Assembly: GCA_017451735.1 (NCBI GenBank)
Contig: JAFTNU010000040.1
Location: 22,101-86,100, forward strand
DNA: 64,000 nt
Reading direction: 5' to 3'
Origin: Clostridia bacterium
GTDB taxonomy: Bacteria; Bacillota; Clostridia; Oscillospirales; CAG-272
The position numbers and the translations under genes were made by a program. Shown here piece by piece: positions 31,539-47,259 of this stretch. The notes under the pieces were generated by a model. The model searched no databases and was not told the DNA's origin. It was given only the letters and a program-made list of their open reading frames with translations. Positions within the stretch are counted from its first letter, which is position 1. The number at the start of each line of letters is the position of its first letter.

Positions 31539-31641
31539 TTGCTTTTCCTCCCCATATCGCATTCTTGCCTTTATCCTAACATGCAAGCCCTGAAAATACA
31601 AGACTTTTGTTCAGCAAAACCAGACATTTATTCATTCGATT

Positions 31642-31758: not shown

Positions 31759-31759
31759 C

Positions 31760-31797
31760 AAAAAGCACCTCGCCGCTATAGCAACGAGGTGCTTTTG
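31760..31797 (-). terminator. Terminator of the 100-aa gene
   Basis: aaaagcacctcg...cgaggtgctttt. Confidence 0.8.
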
Positions 31798-32100
31798 TTA
31801 CATAGCACTTTTCTTCAGCTTAAGATCAAGCCATGTGAGGCCGAGTGAAAACGCATCGTGCAGGCCATCCTTCTGACCGCTCTGAACGATGTTGTTGGGA
31901 TCCTTGGAATCCAGGATCTGGATCAGAACCTTAGAGGGGACCTTCTCCCCCGCTTCTTCTTTATAGGACATGATCTCCAACACCAACACATAGGGGTCGT
32001 GGTTCAGATCGCCGTAAATAATGGTATCATCCTCGCGCACCAGAGGCTTACCCTGATATTGCAGATACGCGCCTTCCACCTTTTTTCTGGTTTCCGCCAT
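31798..32100 (-). CDS. Hypothetical protein (100 aa)
   Basis: GGAGG RBS, TTGACT-17-TATACT promoter at 32133-32161, own terminator. Confidence 0.8.
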   Translation of the reverse strand: MAETRKKVEGAYLQYQGKPLVREDDTIIYGDLNHDPYVLVLEIMSYKEEAGEKVPSKVLIQILDSKDPNNIVQSGQKDGLHDAFSLGLTWLDLKLKKSAM

Positions 32101-32166
32101 TGTACTGCCTCCCTTCACAGATTATCTTATATAGTATAGCACGCCGAAAGAAAAAAGTCAATGCCT

Positions 32167-32186
32167 TTCACGGAAAACATCATGTG
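32167..32186 (+). repeat. Left copy of 20-bp direct repeat (target duplication or att core)
   Basis: TTCACGGAAAACATCATGTG, identical to 45546-45565. Confidence 0.95.
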
Positions 32187-32243
32187 TCTAAATGTTAAAA
32201 TCTAACTTACAGACCGATTCTTCCCCGGTTTGTGCTTTAGGGG

Positions 32244-32306
32244 GCCCTTTTTGGACGCGCGAGCGCGTCCAAAAAGGGCTGTGCCCCCCCGCTAACAGGG
32301 GGGTAC
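32244..32306 (+). other. Double-strand origin: perfect 17-bp hairpin plus Rep_trans nick-site hairpin
   Basis: gccctttttggacgcgc-ga-gcgcgtccaaaaagggc, then gtgCCCCCCCGCTAACAGGGGGGtac, matching the CTAACAGGGGGG nic motif of ICEBs1/Tn916 Rep_trans (MOB_T) enzymes. Confidence 0.85.
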
Positions 32307-32342
32307 AGATATTCAATCTGATCTTTGGGGGTGCCGTTGAAA

Positions 32343-33590
32343 ATGGAACGCAAAGACGGCATTTTGATAGACTGGCTCTCGATCACATCGAAAACCATGT
32401 TCCCCGAGGATATGATGAAATTGATAGGAATTACCTCCGGGTGGCAGTTGCGCGGGCGCGGTGTTCGTGGGTATGGCGATTCATACTATAACAACTCCAT
32501 TCAAATTCATTTCGGCGGTACGCAAGATAACGTATGGTTGGAAATGAGCGGCCAGGGGTGTAGAACCTTTGAGTCCGATTCTATTCACAAAGATTATAAC
32601 GTAATCTTTGATGCTCTCATGAATAACCTTAACACTATGCGCATTACTCGTTTGGATATTGCGTTTGATGATTTTTCGGGTCTGCTGGATATTGATCGTA
32701 TTTGTGACGATACCCGGCCCAGAAATCACAAATATAAGGCCAAGACCGATTATGCTCAAGTGATAGAATCCACCAACGGTATGTCTTGTGATATAGGTTC
32801 TCCAAAGTCCCTGCTGCTTGTTCGTATCTATGATAAATTGGCAGAGCGGCTATCAAAAATGCGTGGGGCCGAGGATCGGGAAAAGGTCCGAGAGTCCATT
32901 CCACATTGGGTAAGATGTGAGTTACAGCTGCGCGATGAACGCGCTTTGGAATTTGTGCGCTATTTGCGCGGCAAGGATCCAATTACAGGAGCTCCCGAGC
33001 CCATGGACCTCGGACAAGCCTATTGTGGAGTATTGGCCAATTATCTGGATTACGGCTATGAAGTTCCCGCCCGCGATAATCCTAACAAAATGGTTTGGCA
33101 TCGTTTTCCGTACTGGAAAAAGTTTCTCAAAGAAGTCGGTGCGATTTCCTTGTACCGTAAGCCAGGCAAAGGTTATAACCTGGAGCGTATGGTTAATTTC
33201 GTGCAGAACAATGCCGGAAACGCTATCGATGCTGCCATCAGTATATTCGGCCCTTCGAAATTTTTTGATATTATTTCCAGTCGTCAGATTTCACAAAGTC
33301 CTAAATATTTGGAGTTGATTAAACAGTACGGTACATATGAGGAACGTGTTGAGACCGATATGGCCATTGATTTCCTGGAGAATAGTGCTCCCGAAACGGA
33401 AGAAGAAAAAGAAAACCGTCACCCGTTCTACAAGGTATTTGCCCGTCGTGAGTGGGTCGTTTGGGGCGGTGTTCGTCATTTGATGTGTCGCGAGTGCGGT
33501 CAAGTCATGCCGGAAAAGGCGTTTGTAGATGTGTCTATTCACTCTAATTTCGCCCGGTGTTATAAGTGCGATAATAAGAAATCCCCATAA
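32343..33590 (+). CDS. Rep_trans-family rolling-circle replication initiator with C-terminal CxxC..CxxC zinc ribbon
   Basis: IDWLSIT, LEMSGQGCR, ITRLDIAFDD, IGSPKS..VRIYDKLAER (catalytic Tyr), WVRCELQLR. Confidence 0.93.
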   Translation: MERKDGILIDWLSITSKTMFPEDMMKLIGITSGWQLRGRGVRGYGDSYYNNSIQIHFGGTQDNVWLEMSGQGCRTFESDSIHKDYNVIFDALMNNLNTMRITRLDIAFDDFSGLLDIDRICDDTRPRNHKYKAKTDYAQVIESTNGMSCDIGSPKSLLLVRIYDKLAERLSKMRGAEDREKVRESIPHWVRCELQLRDERALEFVRYLRGKDPITGAPEPMDLGQAYCGVLANYLDYGYEVPARDNPNKMVWHRFPYWKKFLKEVGAISLYRKPGKGYNLERMVNFVQNNAGNAIDAAISIFGPSKFFDIISSRQISQSPKYLELIKQYGTYEERVETDMAIDFLENSAPETEEEKENRHPFYKVFARREWVVWGGVRHLMCRECGQVMPEKAFVDVSIHSNFARCYKCDNKKSP

Positions 33591-33629: not shown

Positions 33630-33950
33630 ATGAGAGGATTTATCGTAGGAAAAGAAGTAACCAGTTACATTTCCAAGGAGGAAAAAAACAAGCCTAATCC
33701 GCAGTCTAAGATTAGTCGCACCCTGTATGTGGTCTGGGATAAGCCCCGCCGTTCTGTGGAGGGTATGGAGGGATTCAAGGCTGAGGCCGTTTGGGTTCCG
33801 TTCTCCTGTGATGATATCAAAGTGGGTGACTATTGTGAATTTGAGTATGAAGCCCGTAATACTTCCAAGGGTTCATTTGCATCCCTGGTAGATATCATCG
33901 TCATCGGCAAAGCCGATATTCTTCTGGAAGCTTCCAAAGCTAAGGCTTGA
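33630..33950 (+). CDS. Putative single-stranded DNA-binding protein (pV-like)
   Basis: 106 aa, beta-rich and aromatic, directly after rep as in filamentous phages; GAGG RBS; function inferred from position. Confidence 0.6.
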   Translation: MRGFIVGKEVTSYISKEEKNKPNPQSKISRTLYVVWDKPRRSVEGMEGFKAEAVWVPFSCDDIKVGDYCEFEYEARNTSKGSFASLVDIIVIGKADILLEASKAKA

Positions 33951-34324: not shown

Positions 34325-34349
34325 AACATAAAAAAGTGAGGTATAAATC

Positions 34350-34880
34350 ATGAGTAAGAAAACAAAAAGAATTCTGACCGCCGTAGGCATGTTGATGCTG
34401 GGTGTGCTGCTGACGGTTGTGGTCAGTAATGCCGTTGGTGTTGCAACCTGGAACATCCGCGAAGCCAATGAAGCAAACCTGTATCAGTCGGTTACCTTTG
34501 CCGGTACGGACGGTGTGATCGCCAGCGGCGAAAACGGCGTCAAGATCGAGCTAACCGATGACAATGAGATCAAGGTCAAGGGCACCTCCGAGACAGATGG
34601 TACTTATGTGATCGGTAAGATCACTTTGGAGGCAAACACATCGTACATCTTTGACTCCTCCCTGACCAATGGTTCTAACGGTACCATGTATATGTCCATC
34701 ATGAGCGGCGAGACAGAGCTGGCTAAATCTTATTCCGGTGCTGTGGTCTTTACGCCCACCAGTGCCACAGAGGTGCAGATCTGCCTTTACATCAATAAGG
34801 ATGTCAAAACCAATGTGACTTTGTGTCCCGTTCTCTGCAAGGGTACCACTACCGGTGATATCGTCGATTTCTGGGAGTAA
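34350..34880 (+). CDS. Membrane-anchored beta-rich protein, putative virion protein
   Basis: GAGGT RBS; basic N-terminus plus hydrophobic helix, then Thr/Ser/Gly-rich beta strands. Confidence 0.75.
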   Translation: MSKKTKRILTAVGMLMLGVLLTVVVSNAVGVATWNIREANEANLYQSVTFAGTDGVIASGENGVKIELTDDNEIKVKGTSETDGTYVIGKITLEANTSYIFDSSLTNGSNGTMYMSIMSGETELAKSYSGAVVFTPTSATEVQICLYINKDVKTNVTLCPVLCKGTTTGDIVDFWE

Positions 34881-34883
34881 TTC

Positions 34884-36176
34884 ATGGGCAAGTTTTGGCT
34901 TGCGTTGTTGGTAGTCCTGGTGTGTCTCGGATGCGTTGTTGGGGCGACAAACTTCAATAACGCATTCGGCACAGTGGAACGTGTATCCTCCGAGGCCTCC
35001 GAATCCGATGATATATCGACAACCAAATTCATTGTGATCGAGGAGGAATTCTCCAGTGTAGAAGCTATGAATGCCGGGTTTGAGACCGATGGTGTTCCTT
35101 TCGGTGGGTATGTTCTGATTAACACCGATAATGTTGAGGATGCGGACAACGCGAAATTGTATGTAAAACGTGCGGATGGTTACAAGCTGGTCACCGACTT
35201 GTCCGGTGCTCAAGGTGAGCAAGGCCTCCAGGGTGAGCAAGGCATTCAGGGTGAGCAAGGTCCTCAGGGAGAGCAAGGTTCTCAGGGAGAGCAAGGTCCC
35301 CAGGGTGAGCAAGGCCCTCAGGGTGAGCAAGGTCTCCAGGGCGAGCAAGGTCCCCAGGGTGAGCAAGGTCCCCAGGGTGAGCAAGGTCCTCAGGGTGAGC
35401 AAGGTCCCCAGGGTGAGCAAGGCATTCAGGGAGAGCAAGGTCCTCAGGGAGAGCAAGGTCCCCAGGGTGAGCAAGGCATTCAGGGAGAGCAAGGTCCTCA
35501 GGGTGAGCAAGGTCCTCAGGGTGAGCAAGGTCCTCAAGGTGAAAAGGGTGATCCCGGTGTCAGCGTTATAGGGGCAACCATTAACGCAAGCGGGCATCTT
35601 ATCATTACTCTTTCGGATGGTAATACCATTGATGCAGGATTGGTCATCAGTGGCTCTACCGATAGCGGTTCGGGTGATTCGGGTGACAGCGGTGATTCGG
35701 GAGAAGACACTACGGTTACGGTGACCGACATTTGCTTTTGGGATATTGATAATTCGAAATGGGTAGACAAAAACGATTATGATTACGAAGAATCAGCTCA
35801 AAGAGGCAGTTGTCCGCACTGCGGCAATTTCATATATGCTGAATCCGGCCTCTCGGGACTTGAAGTCGAATGTCCTCATTGTCGAAAAGTCATTCTTTTA
35901 AGCAACCGTGAAGGCTCGCTTGTGGTCGATAGAGTGTACGCTGATGATACCGTGACCTATGAGGTGAATAGTAGCGGTACCATCGATCTGTCCACTATCG
36001 GTACTTACTATGCCGGTGGCTCAATGTATTACTATTACGATGAAGCATATGGTGTGATGTTTTTGACTTGGTATATGTTTGATGAATATGGAGAAGATAT
36101 TACAATTACGATGGATGATGGCACATTGATCACGATTGTATCATCCGATTGGAAATTCAATCCGTATTATGTTTGA
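34884..36176 (+). CDS. Membrane-anchored collagen-like protein, putative adhesin or fibre
   Basis: N-terminal hydrophobic helix, 39 Gly-X-Y triplets, GHLIITLSDG motif, GDS linker, two CPHC motifs. Confidence 0.85.
   Translation: MGKFWLALLVVLVCLGCVVGATNFNNAFGTVERVSSEASESDDISTTKFIVIEEEFSSVEAMNAGFETDGVPFGGYVLINTDNVEDADNAKLYVKRADGYKLVTDLSGAQGEQGLQGEQGIQGEQGPQGEQGSQGEQGPQGEQGPQGEQGLQGEQGPQGEQGPQGEQGPQGEQGPQGEQGIQGEQGPQGEQGPQGEQGIQGEQGPQGEQGPQGEQGPQGEKGDPGVSVIGATINASGHLIITLSDGNTIDAGLVISGSTDSGSGDSGDSGDSGEDTTVTVTDICFWDIDNSKWVDKNDYDYEESAQRGSCPHCGNFIYAESGLSGLEVECPHCRKVILLSNREGSLVVDRVYADDTVTYEVNSSGTIDLSTIGTYYAGGSMYYYYDEAYGVMFLTWYMFDEYGEDITITMDDGTLITIVSSDWKFNPYYV
35214..35537 (+). repeat. 18 tandem copies of an 18-bp coding unit (GEQG[P/I/L/S]Q)
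   Basis: ggtgagcaaggtccccag-like unit repeated without spacers. Confidence 0.95.
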
Positions 36177-36194
36177 TCAGAATAGCGAATCAAA

Positions 36195-36231
36195 TAACAG
36201 CCTATGGCCTTTTGGGCTGTAGGCTGTTTTT
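36195..36231 (+). terminator. Internal terminator in the structural module
   Basis: aacagcctatggcc-tttt-gggctgtaggctgtt followed by a T run. Confidence 0.6.
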
Positions 36232-36245
36232 ATAAGGAGCGAGAG

Positions 36246-36935
36246 ATGAGAAAAAGAGTTTTACTGATATTGTTAGTATTGGCGCTTGCGCTTTGTATTT
36301 TGCTGTGCGTGTCGTTGAGTCAAAGCATGAATGAAACCGTTAGAGTTTCCGGGACGGCATCCAATACAAATACAACGGAGCCTGAGCCCGATACAACAGA
36401 ACCCGACACAGGTACAGAGGATGATACTGATCAGGAAACGGGCAGTGATTTGACGGTTGAAGCTCCTACATCCCCCGCCGGCTATGTGAATCAAATTCAG
36501 TTCAATGATGTGACATTGACTGATGTTGTGTTTAGCGAAGAGGCCGAGCTTTACGGCAATTTCTATGTTTATGCCGATTCCGGTACGATTACATTGGACG
36601 CGGATTTGGATGAATATGCTGATGATTCTTTATTGCCCGCCATCGGTACTATAACACTGGAACCGGGATATACCTATTATGGCTTTTATACCACATCGTT
36701 TTTGGAAAACGGAGAATACCGTGAGATCAATAAAGTGTATACAGGTACAGATTTGTTCGGTAGTGAGTATTCCTATACTGATTTCACACTTTTGGGTTGG
36801 TATGATACCAACGGTATCACTGTTGAACATAGTGAAACAAGGGTGCTTTATATGCGAAATGGTATAGACGGTTCTCATGAATTACTGGAATGCGGCAATT
36901 ATTATCTTTATATCATCGCTGTTCCCAACACATAA
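36246..36935 (+). CDS. Membrane-anchored acidic protein with Thr/Glu/Pro/Asp linker
   Basis: AAGGAG RBS; MRKRVLLILLVLALALCILL; TTEPEPDTTEPDT linker. Confidence 0.75.
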   Translation: MRKRVLLILLVLALALCILLCVSLSQSMNETVRVSGTASNTNTTEPEPDTTEPDTGTEDDTDQETGSDLTVEAPTSPAGYVNQIQFNDVTLTDVVFSEEAELYGNFYVYADSGTITLDADLDEYADDSLLPAIGTITLEPGYTYYGFYTTSFLENGEYREINKVYTGTDLFGSEYSYTDFTLLGWYDTNGITVEHSETRVLYMRNGIDGSHELLECGNYYLYIIAVPNT

Positions 36936-36953
36936 AGCGAGAAGGAGTAAAAA

Positions 36954-38873
36954 ATGAAAAGAAGAATTTTGTGTTTGATCTTGTGCGTGATAACGCTTGT
37001 GCCGCTGCTTGCCATTGCACCGAGCGCGGCCACCGATGTGGATGTGGCGGATGAGCTGGAAAACTATACGATTGACGGGAAAGCATTTGATCAGAGCGAT
37101 TATCCGTTGGATCCTATGGATACCGATGTGTACATTTTGACTATCCGAGAGGAGGGCGTGGATCCTGCTGTTTCGTATGTACAATGGAGTTATAAGTTCT
37201 ATATCTATTTTTATAATCCTTCCGGGAGAAATCTGACCATGAGTGATGATTCGGTCGTATTCATGACTTTCAGTGAGGAAAACGATGACACCTATGTCTC
37301 CACAGCAGAGCCATGTTACGTGGTAGATATCCAATATAGCTCGGATAACCGTTTCCTTCGGGTGCAGTATGATGTTCCCAAACTGTTTGTAAGTCAGAAT
37401 TATGACCGTCGCATCTATCATATTTATGAGTTCCGCTTTTGGGAGTATCATGCTAAGTATAATGCTTGCTTTTTTGTAACCGGCTTTGAAACAACTGATA
37501 ACTTGGCTTATAGTGAGGGATCTTTTTTGACCTTGGATTTGGAGCTGAACGGAACGGTCTGGCGTGATGAGAACTTTGTGTCTTTGGATGACCCTTATCA
37601 TTACCAGGAGCTGGCCACCGTTTATTTTACAATTCCCCAGGATGTCTATGAAGTATATGATCGTATTTATCAGGTAACGACCGAATTTTTCCTGTTTAAT
37701 TCTACGCCGATCGTTGTGACCAATTCAGAAGAATTGAACAATATGGATATTGCTTATCTGAAGTCCGGATACACGGTAGACAATTACATTGAGGGTGTTC
37801 CTACGCTTTCTTATGGTGATCTGTATTATGTAAAATATTTTGCCGGAGAACCGAATGTGTTTATTGCTCCGGAATGGGTTTATAATCCTGCAGATAAAGC
37901 ATATCTGGAGTCTATATATGATTTCTTTTCAGTATATGGATATGATTATTTTACAGAGATTTACCCGTCTTTGTGTTATTTCTTCTATAATCCCGATATT
38001 GTGGTAGACGAAAAGAACAATTCCTTTTATCAGGCGGTTCCTTCCGGTCAATTGACCTCTTATGTAGACCAGTTTTCGCAATACTATTATCCTGATACTT
38101 ATACATCATTTGTTTGCGGTATAGCTCCCGAATTGTATGAAAGCATGGAAAAGTACAATGTGGTGTTGAATCCTGAGGATATTTACGATTATGAATTGGG
38201 TACCACGATTGATAAGCCTTATGAAGATCGCAGTTGGTGGGCCCGCATTTGGAATCTGGATAAATGGCAAGAGGTTACCGAGAAGGTAAAGCAGGTTTTT
38301 GTTATAACCGATCCTGCTGCTGTTGCGGCACAGTATGCAAATGATCCGGTTGGCCTTTCCGAGGCATATAAAATTGGTGTTGCGGATGCTCCGGGCTTTA
38401 TTGAATATTTGCGCAATGCAGATGGAGTTGTGACGCTTTGTCGCTTTGCCAATACCCAGTATGAGTGTCGCGAATTGGATTGCAATCCCAAATTGACCGA
38501 TGGTGATGTGTGGCTTTGCCGGGCGAGCTTTTATCAGGATGTGGATGTCACTTTTGTGACGTTTGAAAAAGACGGTAAAGAATACGTGTATGCGGTCAAT
38601 GCTGATCCTATTGATATGGATGGTGGTGTTGGCGTCAAGAATGATGCTAATCTTAAGCCCAGCTTTAATTCAAACGAGTTTAAAAATGCCGTATATGCTT
38701 TGTTGAGCGGCGCCAGGGATGCAGGCAGTAAGTTGAAAAGCACGTTGATCATCGTGGCAATTGTCCTTCTGCTGGTATTCATTGTTTGGCTTATAGTCAA
38801 ATTATTTGGTCCGGGACAGAAGGTTACTATCAAGTACGATCCGCCAGATGGGAAAAGGAAGAGAAAAAAATAA
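36954..38873 (+). CDS. Type I membrane protein, putative attachment (pIII-like) or spike protein
   Basis: AAGGAG RBS; signal peptide ending PSAA; C-terminal TM TLIIVAIVLLLVFIVWLIV plus GKRKRKK tail. Confidence 0.78.
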   Translation: MKRRILCLILCVITLVPLLAIAPSAATDVDVADELENYTIDGKAFDQSDYPLDPMDTDVYILTIREEGVDPAVSYVQWSYKFYIYFYNPSGRNLTMSDDSVVFMTFSEENDDTYVSTAEPCYVVDIQYSSDNRFLRVQYDVPKLFVSQNYDRRIYHIYEFRFWEYHAKYNACFFVTGFETTDNLAYSEGSFLTLDLELNGTVWRDENFVSLDDPYHYQELATVYFTIPQDVYEVYDRIYQVTTEFFLFNSTPIVVTNSEELNNMDIAYLKSGYTVDNYIEGVPTLSYGDLYYVKYFAGEPNVFIAPEWVYNPADKAYLESIYDFFSVYGYDYFTEIYPSLCYFFYNPDIVVDEKNNSFYQAVPSGQLTSYVDQFSQYYYPDTYTSFVCGIAPELYESMEKYNVVLNPEDIYDYELGTTIDKPYEDRSWWARIWNLDKWQEVTEKVKQVFVITDPAAVAAQYANDPVGLSEAYKIGVADAPGFIEYLRNADGVVTLCRFANTQYECRELDCNPKLTDGDVWLCRASFYQDVDVTFVTFEKDGKEYVYAVNADPIDMDGGVGVKNDANLKPSFNSNEFKNAVYALLSGARDAGSKLKSTLIIVAIVLLLVFIVWLIVKLFGPGQKVTIKYDPPDGKRKRKK

Positions 38874-39184: not shown

Positions 39185-39988
39185 TTATTCGTTTACTTTC
39201 CCAGGTTCGGCAAATGCAATTTTCATTTTGTAGGAGTTATTTTCGACTTCCTGTTTATTGATATATATTACGGTGATATTGTCTCTTTGGCACAACTGCG
39301 GATATATTTCCGTTTTGTAGTCTTTTGTGTTTTGATATGAGATATTGGATTTTCCATATCCCCAAAATTCTATATAAATGTTGTTAAGGATGGTGCCGTC
39401 TTTTCGTTTTAATTTTGGGATATAAAAATCTGGGGTGAGTTTGTGATTTTTATCTAATGGTATTATTTTTTCGTATGCATGCAATATTCCTGTATGATAT
39501 AGCCAATCATCTATTATTTGTTCATAAGGACTTTTGACCTTGTGCCCGTCTTCACAAAGGAAAGGAGATGCGTATTCAGCATCAAGTAGTTTAAACGAGT
39601 CGCAGTTTTCCGCTTTTAAAAACAATGTTTTGTTTTTGTATTTTGAGTAACAGTCGCGACAAAATAGATATGTTCCAGCACTATTTTCACAGATAATACA
39701 TTTTCTGTCGGTTTCATCATTTTCGAATCCATCCTGAGGAATGCAATCATCAATTAGCTCGAATTCATCACAGTTTTTGCATTGTAATGTAATAGTTTTA
39801 TTTTTGTACTGATAATAGCATTCACGGCAAAAGAGGTATTCGCCGCTATCGTTGCCACAAATAAGACACTCTCCTGACACATCCTCCCATTCTTCAAAGG
39901 ATAGATTTTCTTCGTCATTTTCTTCATAATAGCAATTTTTGCAAAGGGGGTAACGTCCGCTATATTTTCCACATTTTTCACAATACAT
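39185..39988 (-). CDS. Cargo protein with three CxxC-x9-CxxC zinc fingers and a C-terminal PD-(D/E)XK-like nuclease domain
   Basis: CEKC..LCKNC, CLIC..FCREC, CIIC..FCRDC; DGHKVKSPYE..IDDWLY..HAYE..PDFYIP..YIEFWG; AT-rich. Confidence 0.72.
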   Translation of the reverse strand: MYCEKCGKYSGRYPLCKNCYYEENDEENLSFEEWEDVSGECLICGNDSGEYLFCRECYYQYKNKTITLQCKNCDEFELIDDCIPQDGFENDETDRKCIICENSAGTYLFCRDCYSKYKNKTLFLKAENCDSFKLLDAEYASPFLCEDGHKVKSPYEQIIDDWLYHTGILHAYEKIIPLDKNHKLTPDFYIPKLKRKDGTILNNIYIEFWGYGKSNISYQNTKDYKTEIYPQLCQRDNITVIYINKQEVENNSYKMKIAFAEPGKVNE

Positions 39989-40095: not shown

Positions 40096-42405
40096 TCAAT
40101 CCCTGTGTTTTCTTTGTTCCAGGTACTGCCGGAGCGCTGCGGCCAGGCGTCTTTGAGCGGGCTTGACCTCGGTGTAATAGTTGAAGTCCTCCGGATCCAG
40201 ATTCTCATTGGTCTGCATGAGCGGATCAATCGGTTCCGGCTTGTCCGCATCCACATTGTAGTAGGTAAACAGATCTCGGTTGAGGAAGGAATGCGCTTTC
40301 TTCATATCGAGCACGGTGGCGTACTTGTCCCGGTATGTGGCCAAGTCGTTCAGCCCCACCTTGCAGCGGGCGGTCTGCAGCTCGGTGAAGGCTTTGAAAT
40401 AGTCGGTGGCATAGCGCTCCGCATAGGCCTTTTTGAACATAACATAGTATTTCTTTTCCTCCACATTTTTGCTTTCCTTGCCCGCCTGGATGTTGGCCAC
40501 GGTGGTGGTCTCGCAGAGCATGTTCTGCTGATAGTATCCGTAAAGGTTTTGACGCCGAGTGAGATACCCGAACAGAGCGGAGGCAACTCCCTGGCCCAGC
40601 CAGGTGATCAGATGATGATTGCCCCATTTGAGTCGGCTCTCATTCCATACGCCCCGCCACCAGTCTATGTATTTGCCCAGGATCCCATCCTCGACCCAAA
40701 AGAGAGGCAAGGCATTACAGGTCTCCTTGTGCTTCTCGATATGCATGACCTGACAGAGTTCATGGCCGTCAGCGCCCCAGGAGGACACGCGCTGAGCATT
40801 GCAGAATACGTGCATAAAGCATCGATTGGCAAGCATGGCCGGCTGGCCCGACATTTTGAACCAGGTGTTGAACAGGTCGTTCTTCTGATTGCACTCATCC
40901 TCCCTGGCCTTGACCTCCTTCAGCTGATCCATGTTTTTGCGCTCCTTGTCGATCTCTGTGATCACCAGAACGCCAAACTCAAAGGCCCCAACATTGGGAT
41001 TGTCCTCCAGGATCTTCCGCCCCGGCCGAAGCATATCATAGTCCAGAATGTGGCAGTATTTGCCCTCGATGTGGATCCTGGCAGGATCCCGGTGAAAAAA
41101 GTCCACGTCCACTAACGGAAAGTTGCCCTCGTCCTCCAGGATGAAATCGTCACGGATCGGCAGATTGGCCAGGATGTAGGAGGTGGTCATGGTGTAGCTG
41201 AAATAAGCCTGCACGTATTCCTCCAGCGCATCCCACACGGAGATCTCCTTCAGGTTGTCGTTGAAGTAGTAGGCATACTGCTCTACATCATAATGCCAGA
41301 TCTGTGTAGGGTCCATGGAAAAGGCATAGGTCAGCCGCCGCACGCGGATCCAGTTGCGAGCTGATACCCAGTGCTTGATGGTGCCGTCGTGAATACGGTT
41401 CTTGATCTCCAGCTCAAAGGTGATCCACGGGAACCGTGGGAACTTCATTTGATTCTCATTGAGGATTTTCAGATACTCCTCCCGATCCATGGCGGCACGG
41501 GTAATGGCCATGTCGTTCTGTACCATATCCTTGCCGGCGCGCATGGGTGCCGCAAAGAAGGTGGCCTGTGGAGCCTCATTCAGCATCCCCTTGTTCTTTG
41601 CCTCCATGTGCTGGAGGCGATCCATACCCTTGCGCTGCCTCCACTTGTCAAATAGCCAGATCAAAAGCACCGCCCAGCAGATTCCCGGCAAGACATGCCA
41701 GGTCAAAAGCACATCTACCACCAGCTTGATGCATTGCCGCCCAAAGGTGGATAAATCCAGAAAATTGAGAATGTAGAAATAGTAGGCTAAGAATTCCAAT
41801 ATCAGGGTATATACGCCCAGGTATAAGAGCCAGATAGCGGCAAAAGCCGTCCACCATCGGGAGCCCCGGAAGAAGTCCCAGAAATCCAGACACCAGTCTT
41901 TGATATGACCGTAAGGCGTTGCTACGATTCGCTTGTATATCCGCAGGGGCTTTGTGTCTTGGTTGTAGTCGTTGTTGATGTCATCCCAGGTTACGATCAC
42001 AGGCATTGAGAGAAAGATCACCACGATCATGAAGATAGAAAGCCAGTAGATGATCTGCATGAAGTAGTACAGTAAGAACGACAGATATTGGAGCAGATTC
42101 TCTCCCACGAAAATATGGTCCTTTAGCTCGGTGAGCTTGCGGACGATCTCGGCCAGATCAATGCCGATCTCGCTTTGCAGATTGACTGCCGAAAAGTCGT
42201 TGACCGTCTGCTGAAACGGGAGACGGTCTCCCAACCCCAGGAGATCTGCAAAGGTGTAGGCAATGATGCGGCCGAAGTCGCCAAGGCCCTCCAGAAATCG
42301 GTAGAACGGATATTGATAGACGAACACTCCCAGGGCCACGGACCCCAGGATGATGCCAAGGCACAACCAGTGCCGGTAATTGATACTTTTCAGCTTGTTC
42401 CACAT
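40096..42405 (-). CDS. Multi-TM P-loop ATPase, pI/Zot-like morphogenesis or packaging protein (FtsK-HerA superfamily, inferred)
   Basis: Several N-terminal TM segments; Walker A variant FAAPMRAGKD; Walker B GVLVITEIDKE; HVFCNAQR. Confidence 0.7.
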   Translation of the reverse strand: MWNKLKSINYRHWLCLGIILGSVALGVFVYQYPFYRFLEGLGDFGRIIAYTFADLLGLGDRLPFQQTVNDFSAVNLQSEIGIDLAEIVRKLTELKDHIFVGENLLQYLSFLLYYFMQIIYWLSIFMIVVIFLSMPVIVTWDDINNDYNQDTKPLRIYKRIVATPYGHIKDWCLDFWDFFRGSRWWTAFAAIWLLYLGVYTLILEFLAYYFYILNFLDLSTFGRQCIKLVVDVLLTWHVLPGICWAVLLIWLFDKWRQRKGMDRLQHMEAKNKGMLNEAPQATFFAAPMRAGKDMVQNDMAITRAAMDREEYLKILNENQMKFPRFPWITFELEIKNRIHDGTIKHWVSARNWIRVRRLTYAFSMDPTQIWHYDVEQYAYYFNDNLKEISVWDALEEYVQAYFSYTMTTSYILANLPIRDDFILEDEGNFPLVDVDFFHRDPARIHIEGKYCHILDYDMLRPGRKILEDNPNVGAFEFGVLVITEIDKERKNMDQLKEVKAREDECNQKNDLFNTWFKMSGQPAMLANRCFMHVFCNAQRVSSWGADGHELCQVMHIEKHKETCNALPLFWVEDGILGKYIDWWRGVWNESRLKWGNHHLITWLGQGVASALFGYLTRRQNLYGYYQQNMLCETTTVANIQAGKESKNVEEKKYYVMFKKAYAERYATDYFKAFTELQTARCKVGLNDLATYRDKYATVLDMKKAHSFLNRDLFTYYNVDADKPEPIDPLMQTNENLDPEDFNYYTEVKPAQRRLAAALRQYLEQRKHRD

Positions 42406-42412: not shown

Positions 42413-42511
42413 TCATACGATGTAATAGAGCAAGAATACCAGATAGCCGAGGAACAAAGCCCCGGCTATAATGGCAAGGATGGTTAGGGTGCGTAGGAGG
42501 ATCTTTTTCAT
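42413..42511 (-). CDS. 32-aa single-TM peptide, not in ORF track
   Basis: MKKILLRTLTILAIIAGALFLGYLVFLLYYIV; AAGGAGG RBS; ATGA overlap with the upstream gene; stop runs into the ATPase RBS. Confidence 0.75.
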   Translation of the reverse strand: MKKILLRTLTILAIIAGALFLGYLVFLLYYIV

Positions 42512-42780
42512 TTGTTGTCCTCCTTATAGCATAGTTCATACATTTCCAAACGGGTATAAGTAAGATGCCGCCAGCAACCTTGCATTTCGTCCCAAAACTC
42601 GACTTCGTGATGCCAGCAATCTATATTAAGGCAACATATACATTCGAATGTTTCGCCGTCCACCGTGATCTCCCAGTGCTCTTTATCGTTATGAGCGCTG
42701 ATGATACCGCCGATAATACCGCAAATGACCACCAAGGCCAGCCATACGATCCATGTGTTATTTGAAATAAATTCAAGCAT
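42508..42780 (-). CDS. Hypothetical 90-aa protein with N-terminal TM helix
   Basis: AAGGAGG RBS; MLEFISNNTWIVWLALVVICGIIGGII. Confidence 0.65.
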   Translation of the reverse strand: MLEFISNNTWIVWLALVVICGIIGGIISAHNDKEHWEITVDGETFECICCLNIDCWHHEVEFWDEMQGCWRHLTYTRLEMYELCYKEDNK

Positions 42781-42956
42781 TTTTCTTCCTCCTTTCGTGA
42801 CGCATTTTTTTTGAGTGCCAATACAACGTGCGGGCAGTATTCGCCGTCTATACCGCGCCAAGCGCAGTCGATCATATTAGGGTGAGTTTTTTTGTATTTT
42901 TCTTTGCAGACGGTGCAAGCAAATTCCAAAAGCTCGTTTTTAGGTTCGATTTTCAT
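42621..42956 (-). CDS. Small Cys-rich hypothetical protein, 3' end uncertain
   Basis: GAAAGGA RBS; CTVC..C..C; overlaps the next gene unless the A8 run at 42805-42812 is one base too long. Confidence 0.4.
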   Translation of the reverse strand: MKIEPKNELLEFACTVCKEKYKKTHPNMIDCAWRGIDGEYCPHVVLALKKNASRKEEEKCLNLFQITHGSYGWPWWSFAVLSAVSSALITIKSTGRSRWTAKHSNVYVALI

Positions 42957-43044
42957 GTATTTTCCTTTCCGGGTGCCGAGGCACCCTGCGTGGTAGCGGA
43001 CGGGAGTAGGGCTCCGCAGGGCGGGGGCCGAAGCCCCCGTGGGT

Positions 43045-43227
43045 TTATGCCACTTCAAAAAGAATGGCAATTTTAAGCGTGTTGTTGAAATAGTCTGTAA
43101 GATCTGTCATAGCTTGAAAAATCTTAATGCCAGGGATCTCGATAACATCGTAGGCACTAAAGGCAACGCTTTTTATGTTGTATCCTTTGCTCCCTTTGCT
43201 GATGGTGAAAATAGCGGTCTTTTCCAT
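43045..43227 (-). CDS. Hypothetical protein (60 aa)
   Basis: AAGGAG RBS, packed operon. Confidence 0.6.
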   Translation of the reverse strand: MEKTAIFTISKGSKGYNIKSVAFSAYDVIEIPGIKIFQAMTDLTDYFNNTLKIAILFEVA

Positions 43228-43237
43228 ATCTTTCTCC

Positions 43238-43435
43238 TTAAAGAGTGTAATTGAAGTGTATATTTAAAAAGGTTTTGATTTTGTCTTTGAGTTGTATTGC
43301 TTCTTCAGTTGGGATGCTGTATTCAGCGATGTTTAAAGCGCGGTATATTTCAAACAAATCTGTATCAGTAAGTTGATCGATGGAGATATTGTCAGGTCCT
43401 GAAAAATGATGCCTGATAATATAAGCGTTTTTCAT
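43238..43435 (-). CDS. Hypothetical protein (65 aa)
   Basis: TAATG stop-start overlap with the upstream ORF. Confidence 0.6.
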   Translation of the reverse strand: MKNAYIIRHHFSGPDNISIDQLTDTDLFEIYRALNIAEYSIPTEEAIQLKDKIKTFLNIHFNYTL

Positions 43436-43620
43436 TAGTCATTATTTCCTTTCACTTCGATATAGATCGCATCGTTCTCGGTGTAGATATATTTGATCTC
43501 TCGCTCTGCCGCCTCCTCGACGGTCAGCACCTTGCGCCGTTCGGCCTCATAGTCATAGTAGCAAAAGACGATCCGGCATTGAATGTCGATGCCTTGGCAC
43601 TTCATATCGTTGTAGGTCAT
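43435..43620 (-). CDS. Hypothetical protein (61 aa)
   Basis: GAAAGGAAGG RBS. Confidence 0.6.
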   Translation of the reverse strand: MTYNDMKCQGIDIQCRIVFCYYDYEAERRKVLTVEEAAEREIKYIYTENDAIYIEVKGNND

Positions 43621-43650
43621 TTTCCTTCCTTTCCGCCCAAAATTGAGGGC

Positions 43651-43679
43651 TTGACAAATATTTTGGTTTGTGTTATACT
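43651..43679 (+). promoter_or_regulatory. SigA promoter (extended -10) firing antisense to the small-gene operon
   Basis: TTGACA-17-TATACT with TGn. Confidence 0.8.
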
Positions 43680-43685
43680 ATGTGT

Positions 43686-43776
43686 GCAGGTGACTAACAG
43701 GGCGGGCAGGCTCGCCCCGTTAGCCGTTAAGATACTCGAGTGCGCTCTGGGCAGAGGACTCGGGTATCTTTTTTAT
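43686..43776 (+). ncRNA. Candidate ~90-nt antisense regulatory RNA
   Basis: Promoter, hairpin ctaacagggcgggc-ag-gctcgccccgttag, then terminator aagatactcgagt...actcgggtatctt plus T run. Confidence 0.55.
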
Positions 43777-43880
43777 TTAGTTAAGTAGTCGATAAGTTGA
43801 GCAATTTCCGCATCGCTCCAGTGGAGTTTACGGAAATACTCGAAAATGCGTTGAATGTGCTTGTCATTCAAAGTGGGCAT
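43773..43880 (-). CDS. 35-aa peptide, possible regulator
   Basis: GAAAGGA RBS; MPTLNDKHIQRIFEYFRKLHWSDAEIAQLIDYLTK. Confidence 0.55.
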   Translation of the reverse strand: MPTLNDKHIQRIFEYFRKLHWSDAEIAQLIDYLTK

Positions 43881-44472
43881 TTCTTCCATCCTTTCCACCA
43901 CCTGCCAAGTAACTGCCGGCTTTTCACCCCGTGAGAGTTCTCGGCACTCACGGCTACCATCCATATCCCCCCCTTTCCCGGAACCCCAGAGCCCAACGGG
44001 CTCCGCATCCCCACCGCCGGGGCGGTGGACTTCATGCTCCTTCGGTCCCTGCTTCCCATCGCGTCCTTTCGCTCGCGAGGGATATTCAGACCTCCGGTGT
44101 GATTCCTTCATGCTCCTTTCGGTTGCCCTGTTCCCGAAGATGAAGCAGCACTGTAGACCCGCAGGGTCAAGGGATCAGACGAAAAAGTTTTCCTACCTTA
44201 AAAGTCGATCTCAGGAAAAGTTTTTCGGCCCCTTGACCATGCGAGGATACTGTGCTACGATTCGAAGCGGAACTGGGAAACAGAAAGGTGCGGGAAGAAC
44301 ACTCAAGGTAGGAATATCCGAGCAAAAGAGCGAAATCCGCGTCCCGCCATCCGCAGATGGCGAAATCCCAACATTTGAAGTAAAAGGTAGAGCAAACGGT
44401 CTGGGGGCGCGGGAGCCAGCGGGTCAGCGGCCCCGCGCCCCCAGTGCTCTCCTTGAAGGAAAGGAATAGGAT

Positions 44473-45531
44473 ATGGCATACAAGCGCATCACTTACACGC
44501 TCCGACTGGAGATAGAACGCTTCTACAACACGTTCCACATGAACGCCGTTCAGATTGCCAAGCTGCTTGGCTACTCACATGTCGCTATCTATGCCGAACT
44601 CAAAAAAGGCTATTGGATGAAAAGAAATTCCGATTGGACCGAAACCAAGCAATATAGTGCAGACAGAGCCCAGCAGAATGCAGATTTTAACAAAACTACA
44701 CGTGGCGCCCAGCTTAAAATAGAAAACGATCACGACACCCTCGCCGTGATCGAAAAATTGATGCTCAAGCGCAAACTCTCTCCCGCTTCTGCCCTCGCCA
44801 CCATTGAGAGAGAACATATTCCCGTAAAAACCAAAATGTGCGTTACAACCCTTTACCATTACATTGATAAAGGACTTTTTCGCCGTCTCACAAATAAGGA
44901 TCTTATCTATAAGGGTACAAGAAAAAGAAAATACCGCAAGGTAGAGAAAGCGAAAACTCCACCTCGCGGTACTTCTATTGATTTTCGTCCTCCTCACGTT
45001 CTCAACCGGGACGAATTTGGTCACTGGGAACTTGATAGCGTGATCGGCAAAAGAGCTAAGGGCCAAACGCTCCTTGTCCTCACAGAGCGAAAAACGCGCT
45101 TTGAGCTTGTTTTCCGTTCTAAGGATAAAACGGCCGCCTCCACCGTAAAGATGCTGGACAGGCTTGAAAAACGGCTTGGTACACCCAAGTTTAAGAAGAT
45201 TTTCAAAACAATTACGTGTGATAATGGATGCGAGTTTGCGGACTATGAAAATATGGAACTATCGACCAGAGGTAATTCCCGTAGAACAAGCGTTTATTAC
45301 TGCCACCCATATAGATCTTCTGAGCGTGGATCCAATGAGAACCAAAACGGCATCCTCCGGCGCTTCATCAAGAAGGGCACCGCTATATCACATTATACCG
45401 ATGCGGAAATAGCTCAGGCACGCGATTATTTGAACGACATGCCCCGCAAACTCTTTAATTGGGAAACGGCCCGCGAACGCTTTAATGCCGAGCTTGCCAC
45501 CCTCGGAATAAAATTTTTTGAGAAAATTTAA
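44473..45531 (+). CDS. IS30-family DDE transposase
   Basis: N-terminal HTH, GHWELDSVIG, LTERKTR, TITCDNGCEF, CHPYRSSERGSNENQNGILRRF, LNDMPRK. Confidence 0.95.
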   Translation: MAYKRITYTLRLEIERFYNTFHMNAVQIAKLLGYSHVAIYAELKKGYWMKRNSDWTETKQYSADRAQQNADFNKTTRGAQLKIENDHDTLAVIEKLMLKRKLSPASALATIEREHIPVKTKMCVTTLYHYIDKGLFRRLTNKDLIYKGTRKRKYRKVEKAKTPPRGTSIDFRPPHVLNRDEFGHWELDSVIGKRAKGQTLLVLTERKTRFELVFRSKDKTAASTVKMLDRLEKRLGTPKFKKIFKTITCDNGCEFADYENMELSTRGNSRRTSVYYCHPYRSSERGSNENQNGILRRFIKKGTAISHYTDAEIAQARDYLNDMPRKLFNWETARERFNAELATLGIKFFEKI

Positions 45532-46319
45532 TTTAGGGGTTGACATTCACGGAAAACATCATGTGCGGCAAGCGCCTCCCGCTTGCTCTCACCCAAAGCA
45601 TGATAGGCCAACAGCTCATGCGTCAACCCGCGGGCGGCACAGTAGGCCCGAATACGCTCCACCTCTTCCCCCTGATTGAAATCGGGGATCACAGGGGTAC
45701 GGATGATCATTTTTTTACCCGAATTTTGCAAACGGTCCAGATTTTTTAGGATCAATGTATTGGAAACACCGGTTCCGCGACAGTGAAGCGCGCTGTCAAG
45801 CGCTTTGATATCATACAAAAAAATATCTGTATAGGGCAGAACTCTCTCAAAGGCCGCATACGGCACATTTCCCGCAGTATCTACCGCCACCGAAACGCCG
45901 TTTTTCTGACACCGTTCCGCCACATTCGCCAAAAAATCGGGATAGAGCATGCACTCGCCGCCCGAAAAGGTCACACCGCCGCCCGTGGCATGATAATAGG
46001 GCTTGTCGGCCAGGATCGCGGTCAGCAATTCCTCCACGGTATAAGGTTTGCCGTAAAGCCTTCGCGCCTCCGTGGGACAGCCCGTGACGCAAGCGCCGCA
46101 GACCGTGCAGGCCGCAGGCGAAGCACAAACCTTGGCACAATTGCCACAGCCCATGCACTTCTCAGCAAAAAAAGCAATTTGGGCATCGGGGGACTTCCCC
46201 TCCGGGTTGTGGCACCAGAAGCAGTTCAGATTGCACCCCTTGAAAAAGATCACGGTACGCACACCGGGGCCATCATTCAGCGAAGCGCGCTTTATATCAA
46301 AAATCAGCGGTTTTTTCAT
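45528..46319 (-). CDS. Glycyl-radical enzyme activating protein (radical SAM with ferredoxin insert)
   Basis: DGPGVRTVIFFKGCNLNCFWCHNPE, CxxCxxC insert, GGVTFSGGE; last residues CQPLN come from the inserted element. Confidence 0.93.
   Translation of the reverse strand: MKKPLIFDIKRASLNDGPGVRTVIFFKGCNLNCFWCHNPEGKSPDAQIAFFAEKCMGCGNCAKVCASPAACTVCGACVTGCPTEARRLYGKPYTVEELLTAILADKPYYHATGGGVTFSGGECMLYPDFLANVAERCQKNGVSVAVDTAGNVPYAAFERVLPYTDIFLYDIKALDSALHCRGTGVSNTLILKNLDRLQNSGKKMIIRTPVIPDFNQGEEVERIRAYCAARGLTHELLAYHALGESKREALAAHDVFRECQPLN
45546..45565 (+). repeat. Right copy of 20-bp direct repeat
   Basis: TTCACGGAAAACATCATGTG, identical to 32167-32186. Confidence 0.95.
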
Positions 46320-46323
46320 ACCG

Positions 46324-47259
46324 TTATGCACGATTCAAGAGCTCCAGTTCCGCATCGGTGAGCTCCAGCTCCACCCCGCGGAGATTGTCAAGAAAATGCT
46401 CGACGCGGGAAGAGGAAAAGAGGGGGATGACCCGCGGAAAGCCCTCGCAACGGTAAAGGTTGACCATCCATGCCACCGCCAGGGCGCTGGGATTGACCCC
46501 CTTCTCCCGTGCCATCTCCCGCAGGAATGCCAGGCGCTCTCCGCCGATCAGATCGGCCGGGAGGCGCTCGTCCTTCTCATAGCCACCCTTCGCCAGGCAA
46601 GAATAAGCCACCAGGGGAATGCTTTTATCGCGCAAAAAACGCAACCGCTCGCGGGAGGCCGTCTCGTTGAAGGTGTATTTCGGTGCCACGTCGGACCGGG
46701 GATAGAGATAAGTGAATTTTTGTTGCATAACGGTGTACGGGGTCAATTCTTTCATATTTGCCACCGTATTCGCCTCGGCAAAGCGCCAGGTGTCATAGTT
46801 ACTGCCGCCAAGGCACCGCACCTTGCCTTTTTTCACAAGGGCATGAAATGCCTCCATCGTCTCTTCAATTGGAGTGCTCATGTCATCGGTATGGGCATAG
46901 TAAAGATCCACATGATCGGTGCCCAATTTGCGCAGGGATTCGTCGATCCAGTACTCGATCTGCTCCTTTTTCAGTCCGGCCCCCCGGCCGTGGCGGTCAA
47001 AGCCGACCTTGGTCGCCAGCACCACACGGTCCCGGCACCTGCGCTCGCGGAGCCACTCTCCCAGGAGTAGCTCACTCTCATCTCCGGTTCCCGCCCAATG
47101 CGCATAATTGTTGGAGGTGTCGATAAAATTACCGCCCATATCCATATAGGCATCCAGCACGCGGTAGGCATCCTCTTTGGAGGTGGTTGTACCGAAGTTC
47201 ATGGCCCCCAGGGCCGCAGGGGCCACGCAAAGCCCGTTGGAAAGTTGTATTTTTTTCAT
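46324..47259 (-). CDS. Aldo/keto reductase
   Basis: LGAMNFG, GGNFIDTSNNY, LATKV, SLRKLGTDHVDLYYAH, GGSN. Confidence 0.93.
   Translation of the reverse strand: MKKIQLSNGLCVAPAALGAMNFGTTTSKEDAYRVLDAYMDMGGNFIDTSNNYAHWAGTGDESELLLGEWLRERRCRDRVVLATKVGFDRHGRGAGLKKEQIEYWIDESLRKLGTDHVDLYYAHTDDMSTPIEETMEAFHALVKKGKVRCLGGSNYDTWRFAEANTVANMKELTPYTVMQQKFTYLYPRSDVAPKYTFNETASRERLRFLRDKSIPLVAYSCLAKGGYEKDERLPADLIGGERLAFLREMAREKGVNPSALAVAWMVNLYRCEGFPRVIPLFSSSRVEHFLDNLRGVELELTDAELELLNRA

Follow-up and report, generated by a model that had tools for sequence, protein, structure and literature searches.

A phage-like rolling-circle element of Clostridia, probably integrated upstream of a host promoter by an IS30-family transposase

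A 64,000-nucleotide (nt) stretch of a Clostridia bacterium genome (assembly GCA_017451735.1, contig JAFTNU010000040.1, positions 22,101 to 86,100), hereafter the window, contains an IS30-family transposase gene at one edge of a long unit bracketed by two copies of a 20-nt repeat. The question raised by this locus is whether the transposase moves the whole unit and, if so, where its ends lie and what kind of site it enters. We consider it probable that window positions 32187 to 45551/45552 (~13,365 bp) are a single mobile unit, a phage-like rolling-circle replicon that uses an outward-reading IS30-family DDE (Asp-Asp-Glu) transposase as its integrase, passes through a transposase-joined circle with a split promoter, and inserts upstream of promoters with a 13-14-nt stagger. 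Its host is a member of the Clostridia, and the insertion lies between two host genes. A first-pass annotation of the same DNA had placed the boundaries nearly right, and its finding is real; it had overlooked both the targeting of sites upstream of promoters and the promoter that would form anew when the circle closes. The features on which the argument turns are the following.

32167..32173, plus strand: host TTCACGG, identical to the right tip of the element; first part of the left 20-nt copy; cause unexplained (chance or preference for tip-like targets)
32174..32186, plus strand: left copy of the probable target duplication, 13 nt long, or 14 nt with a 6-nt tip
32187..32218, plus strand: left end (left inverted repeat), with tip TCTAAATGT, extended -10 box TGtTAAAAT (TAAAAT at 32196-32201) and subterminal repeat CTAACTTA
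44473..45531, plus strand: IS30-family DDE transposase, the integrase, outward-reading; NCBIfam transpos_IS30 (NF033563), 5e-65, 219.9 bits against a cut-off of 80
45520..45552, plus strand: right end (right inverted repeat), with subterminal repeat, -35 box TTGACA (45540-45545) and tip TTCACG(G) (45546-45551/2)
45553..45565, plus strand: right copy of the probable target duplication, 13 nt; the full 20-nt repeat copy is 45546-45565

The 20-mer is exact in both copies (32167-32186 and 45546-45565), as previously annotated, and has no third copy on either strand of the window. No other dispersed exact repeat of the window reaches 18 nt, leaving aside the tandem array of the collagen tract (35133-35603); a repeat search extends the 20-mer to 25 nt at 92%, with three of the five added bases matching. 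The guanine plus cytosine fraction is uneven between the copies (0.35-0.53, against ~0.55-0.58 in the flanks), and its fall coincides with them.

The transposase also matched phrog_4646 (2.6e-106), and its residues D188, D250 and E284 are invariant in 48/48 aligned relatives. D250 and E284 are separated by 33 residues, and IS30-family transposases keep their second D and their E ~33 residues apart. Phages Saumur, nd12, nd4 and Lagaffe have integrases 42-46% identical to this protein. The stop codon of its gene (45531) and the right tip are 20 nt apart. The earlier proposal that the transposase works on ends ~13.4 kb apart is supported. Neither a tyrosine nor a serine recombinase was found among the open reading frames (ORFs) of the element with Pfam, PHROG and NCBIfam, and neither a tRNA nor an Rfam family between the repeats.

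A genome scan with the alignment of the 48 transposases gave 429 stretches with a relative, of which the best 80 were kept as loci (numbered with an L below), with at most 10 kb per side. The window's own element is not among them, and the best relative in these best 80 of 429 is 77% identical. As a side observation on the transposase gene, the region upstream of it (44147-44261) contains a large hairpin, the arms of which are 27 nt long and 81% complementary; the arm on the right shares sequence with a promoter-like TTGACC-17-TACGAT (44233-44261, by eye), possibly the transposase's own regulated promoter.

Where, then, does the right end lie? A TTGAC[AT] hexamer is found within -12 to +75 of the transposase stop in 46/80 loci, and 45 distinct related right ends with unrelated flanks have the consensus TTGACA+TTYRCG, often followed by A. 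The conservation over positions +1 to +6 after the hexamer (n = 45) was T 37, T 39, T/C 40, G/A 37, C 34 and G/C 35; an A/T tract follows at +8 to +12, with no signal further out. The right end in the window reads TTGACA TTCACGG AAAAC, and its TTCACG tip is identical in L078, with near variants in L007, L010, L013 and L063. The first-pass annotation had ended the element exactly at TTGACA (45545). Since TTYRCG is conserved in the 45 ends and the duplications of the relatives (below) start 5-7 nt past the hexamer, the right tip would lie beyond that point, most likely 6-7 nt further, at 45551/45552. Likewise, the six conserved bases argue that the first 6-7 nt of the 20-mer are element sequence on the right side. 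One related locus, L017, is on a contig labelled Akkermansia muciniphila; its transposase is 58% identical and it has the same end motif, which points to a binning error or a host outside Clostridia.

The left partner of this end was sought among the relatives by anchoring the right copy of a repeat 3-11 nt past the hexamer and searching for its partner further upstream. An exact repeat of at least 14 nt starting 5-7 nt past the hexamer was present in 4/35 testable loci, against 1/680 control anchors. These relatives move as whole 3.9-8.2-kb units, as follows.

L006: duplication of 14 nt, element of 5.6 kb
L076: duplication of 15 nt, element of 4.1 kb
L018: duplication of 16 nt, element of 3.9 kb
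L081: duplication of 17 nt, element of 8.2 kb

The four repeats are unlike each other and unlike that of the window, and they lie at different host loci. Flanking repeats that differ in this way from site to site identify the repeat, on sequence grounds, as a target duplication and not a constant attachment (att) core. The 20 bp earlier taken as the duplication stand as a repeat; with their first 6-7 nt being element tip on the right, the true target duplication of the window element is probably 13-14 nt. Neither this length nor the 14-17 nt of the relatives agrees with the 2-3-bp duplication of the IS30 family, to which IS1630 (below) is a known exception. The duplication of L018 is one arm of a terminator hairpin. 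The transposase of this locus is divided into two ORFs (10001-11068; 195 and 156 amino acids), and the element is probably decaying, with its duplication intact.

Other candidate repeats were rejected. An imperfect-repeat search (13 nt, at most one mismatch) gave no further credible two-ended locus: those in L023 and L027 are A/T-rich matches without a promoter, and 165 control anchors gave three candidates, none with a promoter. In an unanchored search, the 12-nt repeat of L063 has its left copy within the gene of p769 (a membrane protein described below), the 11-nt repeats of L013 and L077 are inside the control range, and those of L064 and L045 are palindromic, terminator-like and distant from the end. 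An 18-20-nt palindromic repeat in L051, L059, L065 and L073 was discarded as a boundary duplication, with genes like p639 (also described below) lying outside it and the sequence past it being conserved. The transposases of these four loci form a more distant clade (~40% identity). The perfect 18-nt palindrome occurs twice in L059 (5551-5568 and 11041-11058) and also in L051, L065 and L073; rightward of it, a conserved hairpin and a conserved short motif are found in the four different genomes, and it may be an operator or a conserved target.

What the two ends form together can be read from phage genome records of relatives, in which the joined ends are located just past the integrase stop.

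Lagaffe junction: TTGACT-16-TAATAT
nd12 junction: TTGACT-17-TATCAT
MT837638 junction: TTGACT-17-TATCAT
nd4 junction: TTGACA-17-TATCAT

In these free junctions the inverted repeats match at 18-23/30 positions (23/30 in Lagaffe) and the tips are 0-4 nt apart; 5-7 nt separate the -35 box from the right tip, and 8-10 nt separate the left tip from the -10 box. Coherently, the integrated relatives show matching spacings (5-7 nt on the right, 8-9 nt on the left). No 13-20-nt repeat copy is present in the circles. The records of nd12 and MT837638 differ by a single base, located between the tips, which is the expectation if the spacer is copied from flanking DNA. Furthermore, in the deposited record of Saumur TTGACA is followed by the last 7 nt, and TAAAAT is preceded by the first 9 nt. 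In the window element, the 6-7 nt after TTGACA on the right and the 9 nt that go with TGtTAAAAT on the left would together set the two boxes 15-16 nt apart, plus a short spacer. The record of bajarodino virus 74 has no TTGACA motif after its transposase and was set aside as uninformative on the end motif. In L077 (~6730-6790), a left-end-like TATAAT with a subterminal repeat is found ~27 nt past the right-end TTGACA; this arrangement may be tandem or junction-like.

The left tip of the window element begins TCTAAATG. Its TCTAAA had been tentatively explained as the remnant of a circle junction; since it aligns with the right tip and is needed for the junction spacing, it is better read as the left tip itself. 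A 12/17 inverted repeat had also been reported for the two ends. The count is correct and fits the family layout, of which it is the box plus the subterminal repeat; taken alone, it is not above chance, being equalled in a free search in 735/2000 shuffles (tip 45552) and 1202/2000 (tip 45545). A sliding 32-nt comparison gave 16/32 at the boundary, against best values of 15-18 in each of 13 interior 900-nt windows. When the ends are compared in register from their tips, the match is 16/32 with the right tip at 45551 (reached in 10/3000 controls) and 15/32 with the tip at 45545 (33/3000), and in L076 it is 19/32 (0/3000). Short subterminal repeats with a 1-2-nt offset are visible by eye in L018 and L081.

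The site of insertion is marked by a promoter.

32133..32161, minus strand: host sigma-70-type promoter, TTGACT-17-TATACT with TG before the -10 box, pointing away from the element

In 5/5 two-ended insertions (the window and the four relatives), a host promoter of -35/17/-10 architecture lies outside the left copy, 10-12 nt away, and is directed away from the left end. It is the left end, on the side of the replication initiator (Rep), that adjoins the promoter each time, giving a single orientation. The promoters have the form TTGnnn-17-TAnnnT in all five cases and TTGAC[AT] in four.

Window: TTGACT-17-TATACT, 12 nt to the duplication
L006: TTGACA-17-TATAAT, 12 nt to the duplication
L081: TTGACA-17-TAATAT, 12 nt to the duplication
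L076: TTGACA-17-TAAACT, 10 nt to the duplication
L018: TTGCCT-17-TAAAAT, 11 nt to the duplication

At random positions in the loci, such a promoter was found at 8-14 nt in 15/28,400 cases. The 12-nt distance in the window is obtained only with the 13-nt duplication AAAACATCATGTG; measured to the 20-nt repeat it is 5 nt. On their opposite side, the insertions are at or just past the 3' end of the preceding co-directional gene, and the flanks of the relatives are as follows.

L006: TerB-domain gene on the left, contig end on the right
L081: Na:Ala symporter on the left, leuA 3' end on the right
L076: rplU (ribosomal protein L21) on the left, luxS 3' end on the right
L018: SNF symporter on the left, pyrophosphatase on the right

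A 16-mer, TATCTTATATAGTATA (plus strand), occurs at 14934-14949 and at 32123-32138, in the -10/start region of two host promoters. Nothing beyond it aligned, and it was rejected as a meaningful repeat, the two places merely having a similar -10 and start region.

The most serious alternative is the version of the first-pass annotation, in which the element ends exactly at TTGACA (45545), the whole 20 bp are a target duplication as in IS1630 of Mycoplasma fermentans, and the likeness of the first six duplicated bases to the tip of the family is target preference or chance. We regard it as unlikely, with several points speaking for it: the two copies are identical over exactly 20 nt, the in-register repeat with the tip at 45545 (15/32) is also rare among the controls, and the coincidence it requires, host bases resembling TTYRCG (~1 in 1,000), is no larger than the one that our own model needs. 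Duplication length is also not fixed, being 14-17 nt in the relatives and, in the portion of PMC3317919 cited here, 16 to 26 bp in IS1630; the long duplications attributed to this insertion sequence (IS) are borne out there by lengths of 16, 23, 25 and 26 bp. However, TTYRCG follows TTGACA at unrelated sites and is unduplicated at the left ends, so it is element sequence, and an element ending at 45545 would lack the conserved terminus. The same boundary would put the promoter 5 nt away, against 10-12 nt in the four other insertions, and would leave 9 nt plus spacer between the junction boxes, against 16-17 nt in the free forms.

The two host genes at the site are the following.

31798..32118, minus strand: host gene of 106 amino acids, of no known family, driven by the targeted promoter
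45528..46331, minus strand: host glycyl-radical-enzyme activase (TIGR02494, 1.9e-83), with the last five codons and the stop from element sequence

The 106-amino-acid host gene had no match in Pfam, PHROG or NCBIfam. Neither this gene, nor the activase, nor a melibiase gene of the flanks has a homolog in the 80 related loci, which indicates that the flanks are host DNA. As previously proposed, joining 32186 to 45566 gives, by in-silico translation, an activase ending HDVFRERH*, while the integrated allele ends HDVFRECQPLN*; in this reconstructed empty site the activase is directly before the promoter, adjoining the minus-strand TTGACT-17-TATACT (32161-32133). The claim that the host gene is left intact also holds, in that the conserved core of the activase is kept. 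Indeed, 14 activase homologs (64-73% identical) diverge totally past GESKxxAL, with tails of 2-22 residues, so that the change from RERH to RECQPLN falls in a non-conserved tail. The targeted host promoter is intact after insertion.

A mechanism coherent with these observations can be proposed. IS30 moves by copy-out-paste-in, with a 2-bp spacer between its abutted ends and a strong junction promoter, Pjunc, as described in the cited part of PMC9333248. In a similar manner, the transposase would join both tips of the window element into a circle, and the junction would build a promoter from the TTGACA of the right end and the TGtTAAAAT of the left end. This promoter would be directed into the Rep gene, switching the replication functions on only in the circle. 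The junction would then be cut at both tips and inserted, with the 13-14-nt stagger, upstream of a promoter having an A/T tract; the insertion would split the junction promoter again, with both neighbouring host genes staying at work. The remaining 6-7 nt of the 20-mer would be host sequence equal to the tip, partly by preference, or by chance.

Could the transposase belong to a smaller unit? A stand-alone IS30 IS of ~1.36 kb (~44196 to 45552) lying beside an unrelated island, or a composite transposon with two IS30 copies, appears very improbable to us. Such an IS would have a typical length, and the sequence at 44196, located 277 nt before the transposase gene, agrees with the right end at 18/32 positions; its classical 2-3-bp duplications would be statistically invisible, and IS30 genes at both prophage ends are described in the cited part of PMC12823448. 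A score of 18/32, however, is no higher than what chance reaches at best in the interior of the element (15-18 per 900-nt window), and over 21 x 13 combinations of boundaries the longest repeat next to such an IS has 5 nt, whereas the 13.4-kb boundary has one of 20 nt. Thus, no better inverted repeat was found upstream of the transposase. Moreover, the 20-mer adjoins the transposase-proximal end, so that end is the end of the large unit; a second transposase fragment was not found in 31000-44400 (best tblastn E = 0.022 over 14 residues), and the relatives move whole. Equally hard to credit is conservative site-specific recombination by a tyrosine or serine integrase at a 20-bp att core common to the element and the 3' end of the host gene, which would suit the exact identity at both junctions, the gene 3' end and the partial identity (3/5) over five more bases, and which is opposed by the lack of such a recombinase among the element ORFs, by repeats that differ in sequence and host locus among the relatives, by free junctions with no such core and just 16-17 nt between the boxes, and by the absence of a tRNA or known RNA at the site.

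Several points weigh against our reading of the locus as a single, phage-like and promoter-seeking unit. The first concerns the tip: the model requires a 6-7-nt match of the host flank to the element tip, for which unaided chance is ~1/4,000 to 1/16,000, and such an extension of identity is seen in 0/4 two-ended relatives. The inverted repeats of the window are weak, and in register they are non-significant in L006, L081 and L018 (864, 2879 and 262 of 3000 controls). The window's own circle was not observed, all junction evidence coming from relatives with 42-46% identical transposases. A natural empty-site allele was not found either, in a search of a protein collection with the activase only, the nearest other entry being 73% identical. 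Among the testable loci, 31/35 had no repeat, their left end being presumably outside the 10 kb taken (an assumption; the window's own is at 12.3 kb). All four relatives with two ends have small sizes (3.9-8.2 kb) and were taken from metagenome-assembled contigs, the transposase gene of L018 being split. The association with promoters could partly be the survival of harmless insertions; the fixed spacing and orientation argue for targeting. Finally, as regards the viral nature, the window gave no recognisable capsid, coat or Zot-type protein.

Part of the identity between host flank and tip may come from a preference of the active site. In 3/5 insertions the left flank ends in CG or CGG before a duplication starting with A or G (by eye), and a flank with CG at its end and an A tract after it looks like the junction of tip and flank; the other four bases would be a 1-in-256 coincidence. 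A targeting mode toward sequences resembling its inverted repeats is attributed to IS30 in the cited part of PMC9333248.

The content of the element bears on what kind of replicon is being moved.

32244..32279, plus strand: perfect 17-bp hairpin in the leader before Rep, with 100% complementary arms
32325..33590, plus strand: rolling-circle replication initiator (Rep_trans + Rol_Rep_N; Pfam 1.5e-29 and 5.5e-08; phrog_453 3.7e-23)
33630..33950, plus strand: protein of 106 amino acids, no significant family (Pfam, PHROG, NCBIfam)
34350..38873, plus strand: a row of four proteins, secreted or anchored in the membrane and each with an N-terminal hydrophobic segment: p176, a 430-amino-acid collagen-repeat protein, p243 and p639
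39185..39988, minus strand: p267, CxxC-rich, with a PD-(D/E)xK-like C-terminal domain (PADLOC PDC-S69 3.4e-20, HEAT_CxxC_PD-DEXK 4.4e-4)
40096..42405, minus strand: p769, a P-loop NTPase preceded by a multi-pass membrane N-terminus (residues 11-252, with at least four hydrophobic segments)
42508..44111, minus strand: small ORFs p117, p65, p61 and p112, of which p61 and p112 recur in relatives

The closest phage matches of Rep are Inoviridae records (37-40% identity), and an initiator of the type used by inoviruses is thus present in the window. Folded as single-stranded DNA, the leader (32187-32330) gave z = -6.0, equalled in 0/200 shuffles, with a G/C-rich hairpin after the 17-bp one; it is a candidate replication origin or packaging signal. 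On their left side, the four small two-ended relatives encode initiators of single-stranded DNA replicons, of G2P type in L018 and L081 and a HUH Rep with a superfamily 3 (SF3) helicase in L006.

Among the secreted proteins, the one of 430 amino acids (ORF 34884-36176) has a collagen Pfam match (5.1e-20) and contains, at 35133-35603, 18 copies of an 18-nt unit encoding a (GEQGxQ)n collagen-like tract, from which all PHROG "tail fiber" matches derive. The protein p639 has also a C-terminal anchor (hydrophobic residues 589-624) and relatives in 9/80 loci; it showed no similarity to the 644-amino-acid protein of L081 and no usable Atlas match. On the other strand, p267 has repeated CxxC pairs and relatives in 13/80 loci, and PDC-S69 is a candidate defence family.

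The recurrence of p769 relatives in 30/80 loci marks it, as far as gene distribution tells, as a core gene of the element family. At E<=0.001 it has 710 representative clusters of ~700-750 amino acids, an uncharacterised family with a Walker A motif GxMGxGKTT (K292 invariant) and a Walker B-like ITE (E484 invariant); the p769 of the window deviates from the family Walker A, with A..AGKD in place of G..GKT. It had no match in Pfam, PHROG, NCBIfam or PADLOC, 20 relatives had no Pfam match at the cut-off, no solved relative was found by sequence or profile (best E = 0.018 over 67 residues, taken as noise), and the Atlas gave no usable lead. A Zot-type identity was tried and rejected, the family profile giving hhalign probabilities of 0.2% and 1.6% against two Zot-type proteins. 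The protein could be an analogue of the Zot/pI morphogenesis ATPase.

As for particle genes, PF05707 (Zot/pI) had no match in the window, and the one gap examined for a small hydrophobic ORF as coat candidate (33900-34400) contained none; L076 has a weak Zot match. Capsid, terminase, portal, lysin and tail genes of tailed phages were not recognised in the window with Pfam and PHROG. A viral reading is favoured by the inovirus-type replicons among the relatives and by the packaging of a similar element into particles (below). We call the element phage-like; a particle without a tail, extruded or enveloped, would be in keeping with its four membrane or secreted proteins and its membrane ATPase.

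Elements of this class have been published before. The integrase of phage Lagaffe is an IS30-family transposase, and the phage has direct-repeat flanks that surprised its authors (cited passage of PMC5883640, 2018). IScream phages are prophages mobilised by an outward-directed IS30 transposase, with 1,780 candidates in a gut virus catalogue and IS30 genes at both ends, the second often truncated, for which a composite transposon was proposed (cited part of PMC12823448, Nature 2025). The window shares with both the outward-reading transposase at one end as integrase and the Clostridia hosts, and with the sequenced relatives of Lagaffe type the -35/tip and tip/-10 layout of the ends. In contrast, IScream and Lagaffe are 30-50-kb tailed phages, whereas the window element is 13.4 kb long, encodes a Rep_trans initiator and has nothing recognisable as a tail, head or lysis gene; the second, truncated IS30 gene has no counterpart in the window, where the left-end gene is Rep_trans.

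Closer in size is a ~15-kb element of a Pumilibacteraceae genome, packaged into virus-like particles, with an IS30 transposase at its edge, 15-bp direct repeats and no matching inverted repeat; it is inserted in the 3' region of a gene and has an inovirus-type replication protein, its mobilisation being left unexplained in the cited part of 10.64898/2026.07.08.737213. Compared by description and not by sequence, it is like the window element in transposase edge, repeats, 3'-region site and replication type. The inoviruses bajarodino viruses 74 and 13 are likewise small circular replicons with rolling-circle initiators and an IS30-type transposase, and differ in that the window has no Zot or pI match. 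Vespertilioviruses are also small circular replicons with an IS30-type transposase (cited in PMC6668415).

Among the insertion sequences, IS30 of E. coli has in common with the window element the DDE family; its abutted-end circle with a short spacer, Pjunc, copy-out-paste-in and targeting of sequences like its inverted repeats would have counterparts in the mechanism proposed above. It differs in its 2-bp duplication and near-palindromic hot spot, against 13-17 nt and a promoter-upstream target in the class of the window, and in its junction promoter, which drives the transposase gene and not, as would be the case in the window, a Rep gene 12 kb from the transposase (IS30 as in the cited part of PMC9333248). 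IS1630 is like the window element in being of IS30 type with long, variable duplications; unlike it, it is a 1.2-1.4-kb IS with 27-bp inverted repeats (IS1630 as in the cited part of PMC3317919). According to the title of Calcutt 1999, in the reference list of PMC3317919, IS1630 targets and duplicates inverted repeats; such targeting was not seen here, except for the terminator-arm duplication of L018. The nearest precedent for the targeting is TnGBS, a large element with a DDE transposase as integrase that inserts 15-17 bp upstream of sigma-A promoters; it shares with the window the use of a DDE transposase and the fixed short distance upstream of a promoter, and it is unlike it in being conjugative and having a transposase of an unrelated, Mutator-like family, the distance in the class of the window being 10-12 nt to the duplication (TnGBS as in the cited part of PMC3942029).

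Against this background, the corrected end anatomy may be new, that is the 13-17-nt duplication, the tip past the -35 box, the split junction promoter and the promoter-upstream targeting; five insertions and four excised relatives are its basis. The cited passages of PMC5883640 and PMC12823448 mention neither the length of a duplication nor a junction promoter or the targeting of promoters. In PMC12823448 the terms target site duplication, inverted repeat, direct repeat and promoter do not occur, a count limited to its main text, and no literature match was found for IS30 with promoter-upstream targeting.

Tentatively, and with slightly less than even confidence, we extend these features to the whole clade of phage-borne IS30 integrases (IScream and the small rolling-circle relatives): their elements would enter host DNA at sigma-70-type promoters, 10-12 nt upstream of the -35 box and at an A/T tract, in one orientation and with an unusually long stagger of 13-17 nt, and their ends would be the halves of a circle-only promoter that switches on replication. 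Such a rule is without description in the cited passages of PMC12823448 and of the other sources. If true, it would be a second, independent case, after TnGBS, of DDE transposases reading promoter architecture, and the split promoter, by reporting excision, would be a natural excision-sensing genetic switch. Phage integrases of IS30 type have only lately been recognised and are reportedly common in gut Clostridia (cited part of PMC12823448). Should the rule hold, sequence alone would suffice to call the boundaries of these elements with single-base precision (TTGACA and the 6-7-nt tip at one end, tip and -10 box at the other). This would be an aid where tools based on perfect inverted repeats or att sites give no answer, which was the experience of the authors of 10.64898/2026.07.08.737213, in its cited part. 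It would also predict the host sites at risk, namely strong promoters with upstream A/T tracts, and suggest why such insertions are tolerated.

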